Source: Candidatus Eiseniibacteriota bacterium
GTDB taxonomy: Bacteria > Eisenbacteria > RBG-16-71-46
Assembly: GCA_038231135.1 (NCBI GenBank)
Contig: JBBRLX010000006.1
Span: 32,001-96,000 of the forward strand
Reading direction: 5' to 3'
DNA length: 64,000 nt
The translations under genes were made by a program, and so were the position numbers. Within the stretch, counting starts at the first letter, position 1. The number at the start of each line of letters is the position of its first letter. Below the pieces are notes generated by a model, which did no database searches, was not told the DNA's origin, and saw only the letters and a program-made list of their open reading frames with translations. Below are positions 383 through 12,766 of the stretch, piece by piece.

Positions 383-1197
383 GCCAGTCCCCACTCCTCC
401 AGGTCGTCCTCGTCGAGCCCCAGCAGATGGCCGACCTCGTGCTGCACGGTCACGCGCACCTCCTTCTGCAGCTCCTCGCGCGAATGACACACGCGCAGCA
501 GGTTGCGCCGGAACAGGTAGATCGCGCCGGGACCGCTCGCCACGTCCTGGGTGGTGCGGCTCATCAGGTCGCGCCCCACGAACAATCCGAGGATGTCGGG
601 CGGCAGCGGCGGATTCTCGGAGGTCAGTACGTCGAGCAGCGGCAGCGGCTGCACCAGCACCGGGAATTCGTCGAGGTGCTTGCGGACCTGCGGCGGCAAC
701 TCGGCCAGGCTGTCCTCCACGAGCTGGTCGAACTCCGCGTCGGTGTACTCCAGCGCCGGCGGGAAGTTCTCGGGGTCGAGGTCGTGGGCCTCCTCCGCGT
801 GTTCCGCCGCGCCGCCCGCGTCGCCGAGGTGCTCGAGCGTGCGCGACAGCAGATCGTGCGCGTCGGCGAACTCGGGGCGCACGGCGAGCGACCGCTCCGC
901 GTCGTCCCGCGCGGACTCGAGCTTGCACAGGTCGAACTCGGCGCTGGCGCGCAGGTGGAAGAACAGCGCGGGATCCGCAGACATCTCGGCGCCATCGAGC
1001 GCCGCGAGCGCCAGCGTGGGCTCGCCCTCCTCGAGCGCGATCGCCGCATCCACGATGCGCACGTCGGCGTGCCGCGCCCGCGCCCGGAACCGCATCTTGA
1101 GCTCGCGCCGGGCGGCCTCGGCGTCGCCGTTCTCGAGCAGGTCCCAGATCTTGCTCAGCTCGTCCCAGTCCGTCTCGGACAGTGTCTCGAAGTGCAC
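379..1197 (-). CDS. TPR-repeat plus Zincin_1-type metallopeptidase family protein
   Basis: N-terminal TPR-like helices; C-terminal ILGLF..., IYLFRRNL and HEVGHLLG (HExxH). Confidence 0.85.
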   Translation of the reverse strand: MHFETLSETDWDELSKIWDLLENGDAEAARRELKMRFRARARHADVRIVDAAIALEEGEPTLALAALDGAEMSADPALFFHLRASAEFDLCKLESARDDAERSLAVRPEFADAHDLLSRTLEHLGDAGGAAEHAEEAHDLDPENFPPALEYTDAEFDQLVEDSLAELPPQVRKHLDEFPVLVQPLPLLDVLTSENPPLPPDILGLFVGRDLMSRTTQDVASGPGAIYLFRRNLLRVCHSREELQKEVRVTVQHEVGHLLGLDEDDLEEWGLA

Positions 1198-1430
1198 GCG
1201 CGCTCCCGAATTCCGTTTCGCGGCCGACCTGTGGCGCCTGGCAACCGCGCCGGACCACTGGTCGCGAGACTACGCTCGGGGGTTGGGCGGCGGCAATCGC
1301 GGGCCCGGACGGCGCCCGGCGCGCCGACGCCGCGCGTGGGCGCCCGATCCGAAACTACCGGGTCGAAGCTGCCGACGGTCCGGGTGGCTGTCAGCGATTC
1401 CGCAACTTGCGCAGCGCCCCAACCCGGGCC

Positions 1431-1445
1431 GGGGACGGCTCTTGC
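1431..1445 (+). promoter_or_regulatory. possible sigma-54 (-24/-12) promoter
   Basis: GGGGACGGCTCTTGC compared with consensus TGGCACG-N4-TTGC; GG-N10-GC spacing is correct, about 70 nt upstream of ATG 1515. Confidence 0.3.
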
Positions 1446-1514
1446 GCTTCGATCGGCGTCCCCGTAGACTCCCCGCAGGCTGGTCTGCAGAGTCCCAACG
1501 TCACCGGAGATTCC

Positions 1515-2939
1515 ATGAAGTCTCTTACCACCCGAATTCTTGCTGCTGCCGTGGTCGCCGTCGTGAGCTGGCTCGTGCTCGCCTCCGCCGCCGCGCCCCA
1601 CTCGCTACAGCCGAACAAACTGGTCATCCTCTCGACAACGGACGTCAAGGGCAAGACCAGCCCCTGTGGCTGACACACGCCCAAGGGGGGTCTGGCCCGG
1701 CGGGCCAGTTTCGCAGACAGCGTAAAGCTCCAGTACAGCAACGTGCTGCTGGTCGATGCCGGAGGGTTCTTCCCCGAAGGCGCCACCGAGTACGACGTGG
1801 CGTGGTTCATGATGGACGCCATGAAGCTGCTCGGCACCGACGGCGTCGGCGTGGGTGAGCGCGACCTCAAGTACGGGCTCGCGTGGCTCAAGGGGCAGCA
1901 GAAGCGCACCGGACTCCCGATCGTGTCGGCGAACCTGCTCGACAAGAAGACCGGCAGGCCGGTGTTCGCGCCGTTCGTGATCAAGCGGGTCGGCACCGCG
2001 AAGGTGGGCATCTTCGGGCTGATCAGTGACAAGGTCGACCTCGGGCCGGCGCGGGATTCGCTCACCGCCCAGGACCCGATGGTGGCGGCGAAGAAGGCGA
2101 TCGCCGACATGCACAAGGCCGGGGCGACGGTGATCGTGCTGCTGTCCCAGCTGGGCAAGGTCGAGAGCGAGGACCTCGTCACTGCGGTGGACGGCGTCGA
2201 CGTTGTGATCGCGGGCCGCAACGTGCCGCTGATCCAGAAGGGCCGGCTGATCAAGAACACGGTCGTGGCGTACGGCGGCGAGCAGGGCCAGTACGTCGGC
2301 CGCACGATCATCACGCTCGGGCCCGGCGGCAAGGCGACGGCCGGGGACGACGACATGTTCATCCTGAGCCCCGAAGTCGGCGAGAAGCCCGAAGTGCTCG
2401 CGCTGGTCAAGAGCTTCGAGGACGCCTACAACGAGAAGCTGCGCAAGGGCCAGATGGATTCCGAGGCGTCGAAGGCGGTGGCGCAGGAGAACAATCCCGA
2501 CCGCTACCTCGGAGCCGAGTTGTGCACGCGCTGCCATTCGTCCGAAGGTGAACAGTGGAAGACCACCGCGCATTCGCTGGCGTGGCAGACGCTGGTGAAC
2601 GTGAAGAAGGACGCGACGCCCGAGTGCATCGGCTGCCATTCGGTCGGCTTCAACAAGTCGGGCGGCTTCACGAGCGCGACGGCGACGCCGCACCTCGAGA
2701 ACGTGCAGTGCGAGAACTGCCACGGCATCGGCACCCAGCACGACTCGTTCGCGGCCACGCCGCACCCGGTGACGGCCGAGGTGTGCCAGACCTGCCACCA
2801 TGGCGATAACGATCCCGACTTCAACTTTGCGAAGTACCTGCCGAAGATCGCGCACAGCAACCTGTCCGGCGAGACGATCAAGAACATGAAGAACAAGATG
2901 TCGCCGGGAATGATGAAGGGGAGCGGCGGCACGAACTGA
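1515..2939 (+). CDS. secreted selenoprotein: UshA/5'-nucleotidase-like domain with CGU motif fused to a tetraheme cytochrome c (c554-like) domain; TGA 1671-1673 read as Sec
   Basis: GGAGA RBS before ATG 1515, signal peptide, then LVILSTTDVKGKTSPCG-TGA-HTPKGGLARRA continuing in frame into ORF 1743..2939; CxxCH at 2523, 2625, 2709 and 2784. Confidence 0.88.
1686..1712 (+). promoter_or_regulatory. bacterial SECIS-like hairpin
   Basis: CTGGCCC-GGC-GGGCCAG (1692-1708) begins 18 nt after the TGA, with a G-starting apical loop. Confidence 0.7.
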
Positions 2940-2998: not shown

Positions 2999-4390
2999 TT
3001 GACGAACGTGCTCGAGGGTGTTCGGTACTTCGAGAACATCCTGCAGACCGTCGGCAACACGCCGCTCGTCCGCCTGCGCAACGTGGCGCGGGACTGCCCA
3101 TGCCCGGTGCTCGCCAAGCTCGAATACTTCAATCCCGGCGGCAGCGTGAAGGACCGGATCGGGCTCGCGATGGTCGAGGCCGCGGAGCGCGACGGCAATC
3201 TCAAGCCCGGCGGGACGATCGTCGAGTGCACGTCGGGCAACACCGGCCTCGGGCTCGCGATGGTGGCGTCGGTGCGGGGCTACCACGCGGTGTTCTGCAT
3301 GCCGGACAAGGTGTCGAGCGAGAAGGTGAACCTGCTCAAGGCGTTCGGCGCCGAGGTGCTGCTGAGTCCCACCGCCGTCGAGCCCGACTCGCCCGAATCC
3401 TACTATTCGGTCGCGCGCCGCATCGCCGCCGAGCGGCCGGGCGCCTACCTCACGAACCAGTACCACAACCCGGCGAACCCGCTGGCGCACTACCTCACCA
3501 CGGGACCCGAGTTGTGGCAGCAGACCGCGGGGCACATCACGCACTTCGTCGCCGGCATGGGCACGGGCGGCACGATCAGCGGCACCAGCCGCTATCTCAA
3601 GGAGCAGAATCCGCAGGTCCAGACCATCGGCGCCGATCCCGTCGGCTCGATCCTCAAGCACTACCACGAGACGAAACAGCTCAGCGAAGCGCACACCTAC
3701 AAGATCGAAGGCGTGGGCGAGGACTTCATCCCGAGCGCGACCGATTTCTCGGTGGTGGACCGCGTGGTGGCGTGCAACGACCGCAACGGGCTCAACATGG
3801 CGCGCACGCTGGCGCGCGAGGAGGCGATCTTCGTCGGCGGCTCGGGCGGCATGGCCACGTGGGTCGCGATCGAGGTGGCGAAGGCGCTGCCGGCCGACAG
3901 CCTGGTCGTGGTGCTGCTGCCCGACACCGGCGAGCGCTACCTGAGCAAGGTGCACAACGACGAGTGGATGCGCGACAACCATCTGCTCGACCCGACCGCC
4001 GCTTCGGCGGGGCAGATCGTCGACACCAAGAAGCGCAAGATCCCGAATCTTCTGTCGGTGCCGTCCGGCGCGTCGCTCAAGCAGGCGCTGGCGCTGGTCG
4101 AACAGCACGAGATCAGCCAGATCCCGGTCGTCGACGGCGACACGGTGATCGGCACGCTCGAGGAGAGCGACATCCTCAAGCTGGCGATGTCCGATCGCGC
4201 CGCGCTCGATCGTCCGGTGAACGCGTGGATGAAGCCGCCGCTGCCGATGGTGAACGCGGACGAGCACGTCGACCAGGTCACGCGGCTGCTGGTGCGGGAG
4301 CCGGCGGTGCTCGTGAAACGCGAAGGCCGTGTGGTCGGCATCCTGACGCGCTACGACATGCTGCAGTTCATCGCCGGAGGCGAGGGATGA
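2999..4390 (+). CDS. cbs: cystathionine beta-synthase (PLP) with C-terminal CBS domains
   Basis: NPGGSVKDR, TSGNTG, GTGGT and YKIEGVGEDF motifs; tandem CBS domains at the C terminus; TTG start. Confidence 0.92.
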   Translation: MTNVLEGVRYFENILQTVGNTPLVRLRNVARDCPCPVLAKLEYFNPGGSVKDRIGLAMVEAAERDGNLKPGGTIVECTSGNTGLGLAMVASVRGYHAVFCMPDKVSSEKVNLLKAFGAEVLLSPTAVEPDSPESYYSVARRIAAERPGAYLTNQYHNPANPLAHYLTTGPELWQQTAGHITHFVAGMGTGGTISGTSRYLKEQNPQVQTIGADPVGSILKHYHETKQLSEAHTYKIEGVGEDFIPSATDFSVVDRVVACNDRNGLNMARTLAREEAIFVGGSGGMATWVAIEVAKALPADSLVVVLLPDTGERYLSKVHNDEWMRDNHLLDPTAASAGQIVDTKKRKIPNLLSVPSGASLKQALALVEQHEISQIPVVDGDTVIGTLEESDILKLAMSDRAALDRPVNAWMKPPLPMVNADEHVDQVTRLLVREPAVLVKREGRVVGILTRYDMLQFIAGGEG

Positions 4391-5559
4391 CCGACGACGC
4401 GCTCACCCCCACGTCGGGCTTTTCCACGCGCGCCGTGCACGCGGGGCAGATGCCCGATCCCACCACGGGCGCCGTGGTGGTGCCGATCTACCAGACGTCA
4501 ACGTATGCCCAGGAGGCGCTGGGCAAGAACACGGGCTTCGAGTACGCGCGCACCCACAACGCGACCCGGTCCGCGCTCGAGGGCAACCTGGCGTCGCTCG
4601 AAGGCGGCCGCCACGGGCTGTGCTTCGCGTCGGGACTCGCCGCCACCACCACCCTGATGCACACGCTGTCGGCGGGCGACCACGTGATCGCCGGCGACAA
4701 TCTCTACGGCGGCACCTACCGGCTGTTCGAGCGCGTGTTCCGCAGGTTCGGCCTCACGTTTACGTACGTGAGCGGCACCGACAGCGCCGAGATCGAGCGC
4801 GCGTTCACGCCCGAGACGAAGCTGGTGTTCGTCGAGACGCCGACGAACCCGATGATGCGGCTCGTCGATCTGGCCGCGGTGAGCGAGGCCGCGCACCGGC
4901 GCCAGGCGCTGGTGGCCGTCGACAACACGTTCATGACCCCGTATTTCCAGCGTCCGCTCGAATTCGGCGCGGACGTGGTGCTGCACTCGGTCACCAAGTA
5001 CCTCAATGGCCACAGCGACATGGTGGGGGGGGCTCTGGTGACGAGCCACGAGGAGCTGGCGACGCAGCTGCGGTTCCTCCAGAACGCGGCGGGGTCGGTG
5101 CCGGGGCCCATGGACTGCTGGCTGGCGCTGCGCGGCACGAAGACGCTGGCGCTCCGCATGGAGCGGCACAACTCGAACGCCATCGCGCTGGCACGCTCGC
5201 TGGCCGCGCACCCGGGCGTCCAGCGCGTGTTCTATCCGGGGCTCGACAGTCACCCCCAGCACGAGCTGGCGAAGCGGCAAGCCAGCGGATTCGGCGGCAT
5301 GATCTCGTTCGTCCCGGGGGACGGATCCCTCGAGACCGGCCGCCGGGTGTTCGACCGGTTCCGGCTGTTCACCCGCGCCGAGAGCCTGGGCGGTGTCGAG
5401 AGCCTGGTGTGCCACCCGGCGTCGATGACGCACGCCTCCGTGCCCCGCGACCACCGGCTCGCCATGGGATTCGCCGACGGGCTGCTGCGGCTGTCCGTGG
5501 GGATCGAGGACCTCGATGATCTGCGCGCGGACCTCGCGCAGGCGCTCCAGGAAGGATAA
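4387..5559 (+). CDS. cystathionine gamma-lyase/gamma-synthase (Cys/Met metabolism PLP enzyme)
   Basis: PIYQTSTY, DNTF, SVTKYLNGHSD, AESLGGVESL and RLSVGIED motifs; ATGA overlap with cbs. Confidence 0.93.
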   Translation: MTDDALTPTSGFSTRAVHAGQMPDPTTGAVVVPIYQTSTYAQEALGKNTGFEYARTHNATRSALEGNLASLEGGRHGLCFASGLAATTTLMHTLSAGDHVIAGDNLYGGTYRLFERVFRRFGLTFTYVSGTDSAEIERAFTPETKLVFVETPTNPMMRLVDLAAVSEAAHRRQALVAVDNTFMTPYFQRPLEFGADVVLHSVTKYLNGHSDMVGGALVTSHEELATQLRFLQNAAGSVPGPMDCWLALRGTKTLALRMERHNSNAIALARSLAAHPGVQRVFYPGLDSHPQHELAKRQASGFGGMISFVPGDGSLETGRRVFDRFRLFTRAESLGGVESLVCHPASMTHASVPRDHRLAMGFADGLLRLSVGIEDLDDLRADLAQALQEG

Positions 5560-9086: not shown

Positions 9087-11123
9087 ATCGAGAGTTCGCT
9101 GCTCGTCCAGGGTCGCGCCGCCGGCGCCTCCTTTGCAGAACCGCCCGCCGCCATCGGCGTCGACACCGGCGGCACGTTCACGGACTTCGTGGCCGTGCTG
9201 GGCCGGCGCCTGGTGGTGTTCAAGCTGCCGTCCACGCCCTCGGGCCCGGACCGCGCCGTGATCGCGGGGCTCGACCGGTTGCGCGCCGCGCGCTCGACCC
9301 GGGTGCGCCACGGCTCCACCGTCGCCACGAACGCGTTGCTCGAGCGCCGCGGCGCCCGTGTGGTGTTCGTCACCACCGCGGGGTTCGAGGACCTGCTCGA
9401 GATCGGCCGCCAGGAGCGGCCCGACATCTACGCGCTCACGCCGCGGCGGGAGCCGCCGCTGGTGCCGGCGAGGCGGCGGCTCGGTGTGCGGGAACGCACG
9501 GGTCCGCGCGGCGAGCGCCTGCTGCGGCTGTCGGCGGCGGAGCGGTCGCGCGTGCGCCGCGCGGTCGCGCGGGCGCGGCCGGAGGCGATCGCGATCGGGC
9601 TGCTGCATTCCTACGCCGATCCCGCACACGAGCGGGCGCTGGCACGCGAGCTGCGCGGTCTGGGGGTGCCGGTCACCTGCTCCTCCGAGCTGTGTCCCGA
9701 GATCCGTGAATACGAGCGGTTCGCCACCACGGTGGTGAACGCGTGGCTGGCCCCGCGCGTCGGCCGCTATCTGGCGGCTGTGGCGCGGCGCGCGGGACCG
9801 GCGTTCGAGGTCGTGCTGTCGCACGGTGGCACCGCGCCCGCGGCGGTCGCGGCGCGCGAGCCGGCGAAGCAACTGCTGTCGGGTCCGGCGGCGGGGGTCC
9901 GCGCCGCCCGCGACGCGGCGCGCGCCTGCGGCTTCGCGGCCGCGCTCACGCTGGACGTCGGCGGCACATCGACCGACTGCGCCTACGTCGGCCGCGAGTT
10001 GCCGCGCCGGCGCGCCCGCATGGTGGCCGGGATCCCGATTCAGCTGCCGATGCTCGACGTGCATACGATCGGCGCGGGCGGCGGCTCGGTGGCGCGCGTC
10101 GACGCGGGCGGGCTGCTGCACGTCGGGCCGGACAGCGCCGGGGCCGATCCCGGGCCCGCGTGCTACGGGCGGGGCGGACCCCCCACCGTCACGGACGCGC
10201 TGGTGGTGCTCGGCCGGCTGCCGGCGCGGGCTCTCGCCGGCGGCACGTTTCCGATCGATGCGGGCGCGGCGCGGGCGGCGATGGCGCAGCTCGCGCGGTC
10301 GCTCGGCCATCGCGACGCGCTGCGCGCCGCCGCCGGCGTCGCGACGCTCGCCGAGTCGCACATGGGGGCGGCGCTGCGGCGCGTGTCGGTCGAGCGCGGC
10401 CACGATCCGCGCGGCGCCGCCCTGGTGTGCTTCGGCGGCGCGGGCGGGCTGTTCGCCTGCGCGCTCGCGGCGGAGCTGGGGACGGCGGTGGTGTTCCCGC
10501 GCCACGCCGGCGTGCTGTCGGCGCTGGGGGCGCTGACCGGCGGCTCGCGGCGCGAGAAGAGCCGCTCGGTGCTGCTCGACGCCGGCGACCGCCCGCGCAT
10601 CGCCCGCGTGCTCGCGGCGCTCGAGGCGGCGGCGCGCCGCGAGTTCGCGCCGGCGCTGCGCGGGCGCGCGACCGTGGAGCGCTGGGCCGAGGCGCGCTAC
10701 CGCGGCCAGGCGCACGAGCTCCCGATTCCCGCCGCCGGCGACCTCGCGCGCCGGTTCCATGCCGCGCACGAGCACCGCTATGGCTTCGCCGATCCCGCGG
10801 CGCCGGTCGAGATCGTGACGCTCGAGGCGCGGGTGTCGGTGGCCGGCGAGCGGCTGCCGGCGATGCGGCCGGCGCCGCGCCGCGGACCGCGGCCGCCGGG
10901 CAGCGTCACCGTCCGCCACGCGGGACGCGACATCAGGGCCCTGGTGTGGGACGCCGCCCAGCTCGGCCGCGGGGCGCGCGTGGCCGGCCCGGCGGTGGTG
11001 GTGGAGGACGGCGCGACGCTGTGGGTGGTGCCCGGGTGGTCGGGCACGCGCCACGCGAGCGGCGCCCTGGTGCTCGTGCCCGGAAGGCTGCGCGCCGCGC
11101 CGCGACGCCGGGGGCCGCGATGA
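9087..11123 (+). CDS. hydantoinase/5-oxoprolinase subunit A family protein (start uncertain)
   Basis: IGVDTGGTFTD (upstream of the track's start), HGSTVATNALLER, SGPAAG, DVGGTSTD, IGAGGGS and SAGADPGPACYG motifs. Confidence 0.88.
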   Translation: MESSLLVQGRAAGASFAEPPAAIGVDTGGTFTDFVAVLGRRLVVFKLPSTPSGPDRAVIAGLDRLRAARSTRVRHGSTVATNALLERRGARVVFVTTAGFEDLLEIGRQERPDIYALTPRREPPLVPARRRLGVRERTGPRGERLLRLSAAERSRVRRAVARARPEAIAIGLLHSYADPAHERALARELRGLGVPVTCSSELCPEIREYERFATTVVNAWLAPRVGRYLAAVARRAGPAFEVVLSHGGTAPAAVAAREPAKQLLSGPAAGVRAARDAARACGFAAALTLDVGGTSTDCAYVGRELPRRRARMVAGIPIQLPMLDVHTIGAGGGSVARVDAGGLLHVGPDSAGADPGPACYGRGGPPTVTDALVVLGRLPARALAGGTFPIDAGAARAAMAQLARSLGHRDALRAAAGVATLAESHMGAALRRVSVERGHDPRGAALVCFGGAGGLFACALAAELGTAVVFPRHAGVLSALGALTGGSRREKSRSVLLDAGDRPRIARVLAALEAAARREFAPALRGRATVERWAEARYRGQAHELPIPAAGDLARRFHAAHEHRYGFADPAAPVEIVTLEARVSVAGERLPAMRPAPRRGPRPPGSVTVRHAGRDIRALVWDAAQLGRGARVAGPAVVVEDGATLWVVPGWSGTRHASGALVLVPGRLRAAPRRRGPR

Positions 11124-12766
11124 CCGCCGCGTTCGACGGCGCGCGGCTCGCGCTGTTCCAGGCGCGGTTCGCCGCGTGCGCCGAGGAGATGGGCGTGACG
11201 CTGATGCGCACCGCGCATTCGCCGAACATCACCGAGCGCCTCGACCACTCGTGCGCGGTGTTCGACGGCCGTGGCCGGCTCATCGCCCAGGCCGCGCACA
11301 TTCCCGTGCATCTCGGCAGCATGCCGCGCGCGGTCGAGGTGGTGCTCGAGCGCTCGACGCTATTGCCCGGCGACGTGGTGATGCTCAACGATCCGTTCGC
11401 CGGCGGCACGCACCTGCCGGACGTTACGCTGGTTTCGCCGGTGTTCGCCGGTTCCGCGCCCGGCCGCGGCGGCCCGCGGCGGCCCGATTACTTCGTCGCG
11501 AGCCGCGCGCACCACGCCGACATCGGCGGCGCGGCGCCCGGGTCGATGCCCCTCGCGCGCGAAGTCTACGAGGAGGGCCTCCGTATCCCGCCCGTGCACC
11601 TGGTGCGCGGCGGCGACGTCCAGGCGGACGTGCTCGCGATCGTGCTCGCGAACGTGCGGACGGCGCGCGAACGCCATGCCGACCTGATGGCGCAGGCCGG
11701 CGCCCAGACCACCGGCATAAGGCGGCTGGAGGCGCTGATCGCGTCCCACGGCACGGCGACGCTGAATCGTGCGGCGGAGGCGCTGATGCGTCACGCCGCG
11801 CGCAGCGTGCTCGCCGCCGTGCGGACCCTGCCGCGGGGGACGTTCCGCTTCGAGGACGTGCTCGACGACGACGGGCTCGGCCACGGGCCGATCCCGATCC
11901 GCGCCGCGGTGACGCTCGGGGCCCGAGGCGTGACCGTCGACTTCACCGGCTCGAGCCCGCAGACGGCCGGGCCGGTGAACGCCGTCGCCGCCGTCACCCG
12001 CGCGGCCGCGACCTACGCGGTGAGGATCGTGCTGGGCGGCGAGCTGCCGATCAACCACGGCACCCTGGAGGCCATCCGCGTGATCGCGCCGCCCGGCACC
12101 GTGGTGAATCCGCTGCCGCCGGCCGCGGTCGCCGCGGGCAACGTCGAGACCTCGCAGCGCATCGTCGACGTCGTGCTGGGCGCGCTGGCGCGCGCGCTGC
12201 CCCATCGTGTGCCGGCGGCGAGCAGCGGCACCATGAACAACCTGCTGATCGGCGGCCGCGATCCGCAAGCCGGCCCGTTCGCATACTACGAGACGCTGGC
12301 CGGCGGCCATGGCGCGGGCCCGGGCGGGGATGGCGCGTCGGCGATGCAGGCGCACATGACGAACACCCGCAACACGCCGGTCGAGAGCCTGGAGCACGCG
12401 TATCCCCTGCGCGTCCGCTCCACGCGCGTGCGGCGTGGCAGCGGGGGCCTGGGCCGGCATCGCGGCGGCGACGGCATCGAGCGTGCGCTCGAGCTCATGG
12501 CCCCGGCGCGCGTCACCGTGATCTCGGAGCGGCGGCTGCGCGGCCCGTGGGGGCTCGCCGGCGGCCGGCCGGGAGCGCCGGGCCGGAACACCGTGCGCGA
12601 GTCGCCCGGCGCCCGCGCGCGCCGGATGCCCGGGAAGTTCGTGGTCGATCTCGCGGCGGGCGCCGTGCTCACGGTGACGAGCCCCGGCGGCGGCGGCTAC
12701 GGGCGACCGGGCTTCGCCGCATCGCGCGCGAAGCGCCGGGTCGCGCGTCGCGCTCCGCAGCGGTAG
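11120..12766 (+). CDS. hydantoinase B/oxoprolinase family protein
   Basis: EEMGVTLMRTAHSPNI, HIPVHLGSM, NDPFAGGTHLPD, HHADIGG and SPGGGGYG motifs; ATGA overlap with subunit A. Confidence 0.92.
   Translation: MTAAFDGARLALFQARFAACAEEMGVTLMRTAHSPNITERLDHSCAVFDGRGRLIAQAAHIPVHLGSMPRAVEVVLERSTLLPGDVVMLNDPFAGGTHLPDVTLVSPVFAGSAPGRGGPRRPDYFVASRAHHADIGGAAPGSMPLAREVYEEGLRIPPVHLVRGGDVQADVLAIVLANVRTARERHADLMAQAGAQTTGIRRLEALIASHGTATLNRAAEALMRHAARSVLAAVRTLPRGTFRFEDVLDDDGLGHGPIPIRAAVTLGARGVTVDFTGSSPQTAGPVNAVAAVTRAAATYAVRIVLGGELPINHGTLEAIRVIAPPGTVVNPLPPAAVAAGNVETSQRIVDVVLGALARALPHRVPAASSGTMNNLLIGGRDPQAGPFAYYETLAGGHGAGPGGDGASAMQAHMTNTRNTPVESLEHAYPLRVRSTRVRRGSGGLGRHRGGDGIERALELMAPARVTVISERRLRGPWGLAGGRPGAPGRNTVRESPGARARRMPGKFVVDLAAGAVLTVTSPGGGGYGRPGFAASRAKRRVARRAPQR

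Follow-up and report, generated by a model that had tools for sequence, protein, structure and literature searches.

The internal UGA codon of the gene described here is almost certainly read as selenocysteine, as the initial annotation of this DNA had proposed. This reading is supported by the presence of the selenocysteine machinery in the genome, by an alignment column that holds either TGA or a cysteine codon and by a conserved hairpin downstream of the codon, from which incorporation of the residue would follow. The coding sequence, located at positions 1515..2939 on the + strand of the window (the whole stretch of 64,000 nucleotides that was analysed), specifies a 474-amino acid UshA-like PCGU (seleno)protein with selenocysteine at codon 53, and was assigned by its match to NF041198. 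The protein is a member of this already catalogued family and not a new one, so that the gene itself represents the rescue of a truncated member of a known family, which is very common in understudied phyla.

The in-frame UGA codon and its decoding

Translation of positions 1515-2939 gave a sole internal stop, TGA 1671-1673 (codon 53), which stands between the residues KTSPCG and HTPKGGLARRA and completes a Cys51-Gly-Sec53 motif (1665..1673, + strand). Under translation table 11, the region is listed as two ORFs, 1182..1673 and 1743..2939, which share one frame and are split by this TGA only, as had been claimed earlier. The upstream part had been said to hold the ribosome-binding site, the leader and the first beta-strand, and we indeed see there a GGAG ribosome-binding-like site (1506..1509, + strand, 5 nt before ATG 1515), a hydrophobic leader and a beta-strand. 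The predicted Sec-pathway signal peptide (amino acids 1 to ~27, 1515..1595, + strand), assigned by inspection and hydropathy, has an n-region with K/R, a hydrophobic core and an Ala-rich end, contains neither Cys nor RR, and coincides with a hydrophobic stretch of residues ~3-28. The protein is likely periplasmic, and the leader together with the read-through frame supports the earlier proposal of an exported 474-amino acid product. It had also been predicted that annotation pipelines would truncate the gene, and the protein database entry is indeed a 398-amino acid product (P0002). Members of the family are usually mis-annotated as hypothetical or nucleotidase-like proteins without the active-site N-terminus; among the matches listed (120 of 969 at E<=1e-20), 31 of the 120 homologues contain the CxC segment.

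The genome, which is 93% complete, encodes selA, selB, selC (tRNA-Sec) and selD, all of which were found above cut-offs in profile searches, as the initial annotation had suggested checking. The selA match has an E-value of 2.7e-140, and the tRNA-Sec, with anticodon UCA, scores 66.5 bits. At G000:C31:7989-9183 (- strand), tRNA-Sec comes immediately after selD, and a gene for a translation GTPase lies at a greater distance downstream; no in-frame stop was found within the SelD match. All 41 related genomes searched match the protein at some level and 37 of them carry a TGA copy. Among the remaining four, G007 and G037 have no orthologue-level match, G009 has a Cys copy only, and the match in G032 begins past the column. 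G009, in which no selA was found, had been considered as a natural control and was dropped, as selB and tRNA-Sec are present; for the same reason, its selA is probably unassembled. G040 (86% complete) has a TGA copy and no selA, selB or selC above cut-off, and was kept out of the evidence.

Alignment of the homologues, likewise suggested at the outset, revealed only Cys or TGA at the column in question and neither Trp nor any other residue. In 58 distinct copies from relatives' genomes the codon is TGA in 39, TGC/TGT in 19 and nothing else, and among 80 distant-genome loci, 28 have TGA, 39 have Cys, 12 are unreadable and one is misregistered; these counts and those for the hairpin are not independent, as kin share sequence, and both include two rows (L047) from the unpublished genome G026. 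Residues C51 and C/U53 are each conserved to 99% in the 209 sequences spanning both. Over the 69 nt that would be intergenic if the TGA were a stop, the changes seen in 30 orthologues number 149, 84 and 230 at the first, second and third codon position, respectively, and are thus mostly third-position changes. An assembly error can be excluded, mainly because the TGA recurs in 38 other relatives' copies. Two public assemblies match the stretch with 0 differences, possibly as the source of the stretch itself, and two metatranscriptome contig sets cover the TGA in relatives with no change listed at 1671-1673 (shares 0.05-0.06, with DNA carry-over possible); the latter sets are not taken as a sign of expression.

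An initial claim of a 7-bp hairpin with a G-starting loop 18 nt past the TGA was confirmed: a SECIS-like hairpin with the stem CTGGCCC-GGC-GGGCCAG and a GGC loop is located at 1692..1708 (+ strand). An alignment of 29 distinct TGA copies, with eight from more distant families set aside, shows 100% pairing in the hairpin and the same 18-nt spacing, and nine of these copies carry a two-sided swap from G-C to C-G at synonymous positions. At least six Watson-Crick pairs can form in 35 of the 39 TGA copies from relatives versus 5 of the 19 Cys copies, a comparison in which the misregistered TGA row of L064 is scored as a miss. The inner 5 bp and the G-starting loop are found in 20/28 distant TGA copies versus 2/39 Cys copies. 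The folding energy of the hairpin does not exceed what such GC-rich DNA yields by chance (z -0.08 to -1.93 in five folds), the TGA and the Cys copies of the relatives show no difference in minimum free energy (p 0.18), and ~5% of codon-usage-weighted codings of LARRAS would yield the hairpin. It is the conservation of the hairpin, and not its stability by itself, that provides the evidence for it. The codons GGT and AGT had been described as rare, which holds for the genome (8% of Gly and 3% of Ser codons, respectively); as an argument for the hairpin this is weak, since GGT is located immediately upstream of the stem and GGC/AGC take the place of these codons in many orthologues. Taken as a real stop or an error, the TGA would leave a pseudogene or a split gene, a reading that has nothing but the table 11 translation in its favour and is contradicted by the selenocysteine machinery, the TGA/Cys column, the compensated hairpin and the third-position changes; we assign it a vanishingly small probability.

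A genome-wide scan returned 38 candidate in-frame TGAs, nine of those with a stem of 6 bp or longer being listed, and besides the gene described here, two candidates coding for SelW-type and peroxiredoxin-like proteins were examined. The SelW/SelT/SelH-type gene (G000:C12:1534, - strand; L153:350-589) has a CxxU motif (CTA-TGA), and its product passes NF041051 and TIGR02174 when read through. The Peroxiredoxin Q/BCP-like gene (G000:C4:182652, + strand; L152:231-821) has an in-frame TGA in T-P-G-U, followed by an 8-bp stem, and is likely the third selenoprotein gene of the genome.

Family membership, copies and genomic neighbourhood

The read-through protein scores 285.3 bits against NF041198 (UshA_like_PCGU; cut-off 275), as compared to 238.4 for the 398-amino acid form. 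The match covers positions 2-269 and 354-518 of the 519-position model and therefore both domains, and the PCG[U/C] motif and the C-terminal cytochrome region, both traits of NF041198, are present. A same-genus orthologue scores 276.4, and six other relatives' copies score 146-268, below the cut-off. The novelty of the UshA-like/cytochrome fusion was not borne out, since the NF041198 model already spans both domains. In the portions available to us, three studies tabulate the family as COG0737 UshA-like with a CxU motif, and list it without a heme domain, structure or function (PMC2398784, PMC9312934, PMC13188914). Our search of article texts returned no functional or structural study of the UshA-like PCGU family, which supplementary tables might describe in more detail. 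CxU UshA-like selenoproteins had been described as occurring mainly in Deltaproteobacteria, which proved too narrow, as TGA copies are also found in Eisenbacteria, Krumholzibacteriia, Acidobacteriota/Blastocatellia, Myxococcales, Thermodesulfobacteriota and planctomycete-phylum genomes. The named close homologues are from Candidatus Eisenbacteria. The family comprises 831 clusters at E<=1e-30 and is matched in 70 of 121 sampled planctomycete-phylum genomes, and 76 Sec sequences of the family are given for the marine GOS set in the accessible part of the source (PMC2398784).

In a quick tree, Cys and heme-less copies arise repeatedly among Sec copies (12 changes, at least 8 of them forced), often beside the Sec gene of the same genome. 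The relatives' heme-less copies are derived duplicates, found in genomes that also hold a full-length TGA copy, and may act in trans or be diverging. Eight heme-less copies in relatives' loci keep CxC and one heme-less copy (L079) has a TGA; no CxxCH is present in 15 of 73 motif-bearing representatives, some of which are fragments. The genome itself encodes a distant all-Cys paralogue (G000:C9:96471-97790, - strand; L021) with CGC, four CxxCH motifs and ~30% identity, and similar copies are present in several relatives. Tandem Sec and Cys copies, with or without the heme domain, occur at L053, L055, L061, L067, L071, L079 and L081 and in the planctomycete-phylum genomes G135, G153, G170 and G202; the Cys copies of these pairs look like selenium-independent back-ups. 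Three proteins of ~1200 amino acids (P0137, P0156 and P0256) have two CxC-bearing phosphoesterase-fold domains around DsbA/GILT-like domains and a tetraheme domain at the end.

The gene is followed after 59 nt by a cystathionine beta-synthase gene, cbs (2999..4390, + strand; TIGR01137 529.8, cut-off 510.25), whose stop is overlapped by a gene for a cystathionine gamma-lyase/synthase family enzyme (4387..5559, + strand; PF01053), for which the nearest NCBIfam models all score under cut-off. Of the 37 related genomes in which a TGA copy is present, 29 have cbs directly downstream and 6 do not, while 2 could not be evaluated. We found no terminator-like site on the + strand between the selenoprotein gene and cbs, which are possibly co-transcribed, and no sigma-70-like promoter. 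The link to cbs is limited to the lineage, as of 80 distant loci only 4 contain cbs or cgl. A TPR and zincin-like protein is encoded by window:379-1197 (- strand), which is transcribed away from the selenoprotein gene and is kept there in most same-family genomes. Ordinary neighbours on the + strand (window:6173-9009 and 9189-12766) encode a DUF4097 protein, a bactofilin-like membrane protein, hydantoinase/oxoprolinase A and then probably B. Further along, window:12870-14087 (+ strand) codes for an exported-looking protein of 405 amino acids, with a CxxCH (CQQCH) in its N-terminal part and an aromatic C-terminus resembling that of porins, which has no Pfam match at 1e-3 and no NCBIfam match at 1e-8 and is possibly a heme-bearing outer-membrane barrel. 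In 16 distant loci (L085, L094, L101, L112 and 12 others), a gene for a DUF1573/Ig-like protein adjoins the family gene, and such a domain is fused to the protein in 4 of 24 long homologues.

The phosphoesterase-fold and tetraheme domains

The AlphaFold2 model of residues 30-451 comprises two domains (pLDDT 95.2, pTM 0.89). The first, assigned by fold match and alignments, is a 5'-nucleotidase/SoxB-type metallophosphoesterase-fold domain followed by a linker helix (1614..2474, + strand). It matches 5'-nucleotidases with VIA Z ~35 and an rmsd of 2.2-2.4 over ~280 residues, and SoxB with Z 32.7 (range for both together, 32-35). In an alignment with the Thermus 5'-nucleotidase, the motifs DAGD, GNHE, SH and GGH correspond to DAGG, GERD, SQ and AGR; the motif residues of the nucleotidase (DxH, GD, GNHE, H, GH) provide the dimetal ligands and the catalytic His. 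The metal-ligand positions are occupied by K45, G84, E115, R116, Q212 and R235, and only D43 is kept. Positions 84, 115, 212 and 235 are D, E/D, H and H in 75/188 distant and 10/15 intermediate sequences, are G, E/D, Q and R/H in 149 close sequences, and are among the strongest covarying pairs of the alignment. The metal ligands of the 5'-nucleotidases have thus been lost together in this clade, which argues that the protein is probably not a hydrolase. The metal site is also dispensable, because its ligands vary across the family while CxC/U, R62 and the heme motifs stay: conservation reaches 90-100% at C51, C/U53, G58-G59, R62 and every heme motif, with CxC/U and all CxxCH at 99-100%. A working hydrolase of the 5'-nucleotidase, phosphoesterase or SoxB type, to which the cytochrome is incidental, would be in keeping with a fold identical to that of 5'-nucleotidase and SoxB and with the D-E-H-H set kept by many distant members. 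However, with K45, G84, R116, Q212 and R235 at the aligned positions of the metal and catalytic His/Asp residues and a cytochrome in place of the substrate-binding C-terminal domain, we regard such an activity as highly improbable.

The second domain (2493..2867, + strand) is a cytochrome c554-type tetraheme domain (PF13435, E 4.5e-16; 1bvb, E 5.8e-14; VIA Z 11.3 over 125 residues). All four of the C-terminal CxxCH motifs claimed earlier were located, at nt 2523, 2625, 2709 and 2784 (amino acids 337, 371, 399 and 424), and cytochrome c assembly genes are present in the genome. In 343 domain sequences, exactly seven His residues are conserved, four of them in CxxCH motifs plus H353, H409 and H447, and no Met, Tyr or extra His exceeds 54% conservation in the heme domain. 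With seven conserved His residues for four hemes, one heme is therefore left without a His partner. By homology, on which the assignment of His residues to hemes is based, this would be heme 2. In c554, OcwA and MccA, heme 2 is described as the open, active-site heme in the available parts of two reports (10.1101/641308, PMC9250108), the first of which places copper at heme 2 of MccA.

Rigid fold alignments to 5'-nucleotidases mostly stop at model residues 338-344 (367-373 in the full protein, the heme-2 motif), against their C-domain; these end points would place heme 2 in the cleft between the domains, as a hint that is too weak to count. Interdomain covariation is at control level, with a top z of 6.6 versus 4.7-7.4 in shuffled pairings (352 and 211 sequences), and leaving out the heme domain does not lower the confidence of the prediction for the CxU loop (block pLDDT 93, versus 90 with the domain present).

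Proposed function and comparison with known systems

We give roughly even chances to a function as a periplasmic S-S/Se-S oxidoreductase, in which the Cys51/Sec53 pair would be redox-coupled to the hemes, act on a chalcogen substrate and work at heme 2, by analogy with MccSep. SelB-tRNA(Sec) almost certainly decodes the UGA via the hairpin at 1692-1708, and the protein would be exported and receive its four hemes, consistent with the cytochrome c assembly genes. The phosphoesterase-fold domain, in which the ligands are replaced, might serve as a scaffold presenting the CxU loop and the conserved Arg62/Arg63. Cys51 would be placed on or beside heme 2, Sec53 would attack an S-S bond, and the heme chain would reduce the mixed Se-S/S-S intermediate, as in MccSep. 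Direct ligation of heme 2 by Cys51 is a tentative part of this proposal. Its weakest step is the substrate, for which a small persulfide, polysulfide or disulfide is our best candidate, though a doubtful one. Of 24 long homologues selected for a domain scan, 6 have fused DsbA/GILT-like domains, and this thiol-redox context and the adjoining cbs lean weakly toward a role in sulfur redox chemistry. Sulfur respiration cannot be the general role, because many carrier lineages are aerobic. Placement of the CxU pair at heme 2 gains no support from the interdomain covariation or from the fold of the first domain alone, and the heme-less copies that keep CxC, one of which has a TGA, count against this proposal.

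The same DsbA/GILT-like fusions could also speak for a generator of protein disulfides in the envelope, whose CxU would take electrons from DsbA-like proteins and pass them via the hemes to the respiratory chain, in place of DsbB/VKOR. A DsbA-like gene adjoins 4 distant loci and a TlpA-like gene 3, fusions to LysM, Ig-like and DUF1573 domains suggest the envelope, and among 31 related genomes DsbB is present in none and VKOR in 5. However, this genome has a VKOR with a DsbA-like domain adjoining, 19 of 50 distant carriers encode DsbB or VKOR, and only one Cys is present in four of the five fused domains inspected (CPYG/CPFG type). Across 121 planctomycete-phylum genomes of unreported completeness, in which kin are not independent, DsbB or VKOR is present in 23/70 carriers versus 10/51 non-carriers (Fisher p 0.15), which is the wrong direction. 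A replacement of DsbB/VKOR is thus not supported, as no anticorrelation was seen in these 121 genomes, and we consider this function unlikely.

Copper in MccA is ligated by two Cys, and one might speculate that the CxU motif binds a metal, either as Cu(I) over an open heme 2 or as replacement of the metal-1 ligands together with Asp43, for the reduction of an oxyanion or for a thiophilic metal. The open heme 2 of c554, OcwA and MccA, as far as the available accounts go, and the copper found there in MccA would fit such a site, as would the covariation of K47 with Q257, which sets the loop by the former metal-1 side, the retention of D43 in 59/59 close sequences spanning the position, and the heme-less CxC copies, in which the metal site could stand alone. 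Yet D43 is variable in distant members (D in 63 of 137 covered), and no copper or metal-resistance gene is among the recurring neighbours; metal binding thus appears slightly less probable still than the generation of disulfides. A scavenger of peroxides or other oxidants in the periplasm, in which Sec53 reduces H2O2 or a similar compound, Cys51 resolves the product and the selenenylsulfide is re-reduced through the hemes at the expense of the quinol pool, would draw on established selenol chemistry and suit the broad spread of the family, which includes the marine GOS set in the accessible part of that study (PMC2398784). No peroxiredoxin-type motif is present, though, and no quinol dehydrogenase was found among the recurring neighbours, so that we rank this function as the least likely of the three.

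Returning to the S-S/Se-S oxidoreductase, the protein combines features of several known systems. The best match of its heme domain in sequence and fold is Nitrosomonas cytochrome c554 (PDB 1bvb), and both c554 and the N-modules of OcwA/MccA agree with it in how hemes 1-3 are spaced and in the position of the TAH His. Compared to c554, the loops are much shorter (125 vs 183 residues aligned) and the domain is fused to a CxU domain. The fold and the linker helix are shared with the 5'-nucleotidases UshA/CD73 and with the N-terminal domain of SoxB, whereas the metal and catalytic residues are replaced, the C-terminal substrate domain is swapped for a cytochrome, and the protein scores far below the cut-offs of the 5'-nucleotidase/SoxB families. 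Within NF041198, the protein is 45 amino acids shorter than the model, and its clade is without the D-E-H-H metal set that many distant members keep.

The closest functional parallel would be MccSep/ExtKL (GSU2937-2936, NF040886), whose model has no match in the genome in a profile search. According to the part of the report available, Geobacter MccSep is a periplasmic pentaheme selenoenzyme that reduces polysulfide and selenite, in which heme 2 has a Cys on its distal side as ligand, a Sec contributed by another domain lies 3.6 A away, and an Arg binds anions (PMC13510729). As far as this account allows, both are periplasmic multiheme selenoproteins with a heme 2 that has no distal His, in both the Sec comes from a domain of its own that binds no heme, and a conserved Cys and Arg are available. 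The PCGU family might be a second Cys/Sec-heme enzyme for chalcogen redox chemistry, assembled independently of the first, in which a dead 5'-nucleotidase domain supplies the Cys51 ligand and the Sec53 nucleophile at a c554-type heme 2, a possibility that we put forward with clear reservation. If true, it would represent convergence on the MccSep active site, with a far wider spread than MccSep appears to have. Together with the MccSep structure of 2026, the His count and the joint loss of the metal ligands make this active-site hypothesis testable, and the interest there exceeds that of the gene itself. MccSep has five hemes, a C-terminal Ig-like Sec domain and, in the part of the report seen, Cys239 and Sec325 far apart in sequence, whereas in the protein described here there are four hemes, and the phosphoesterase-fold domain at its N-terminus carries a CxU motif; the scaffolds are unrelated, and the likeness is one of analogy only.
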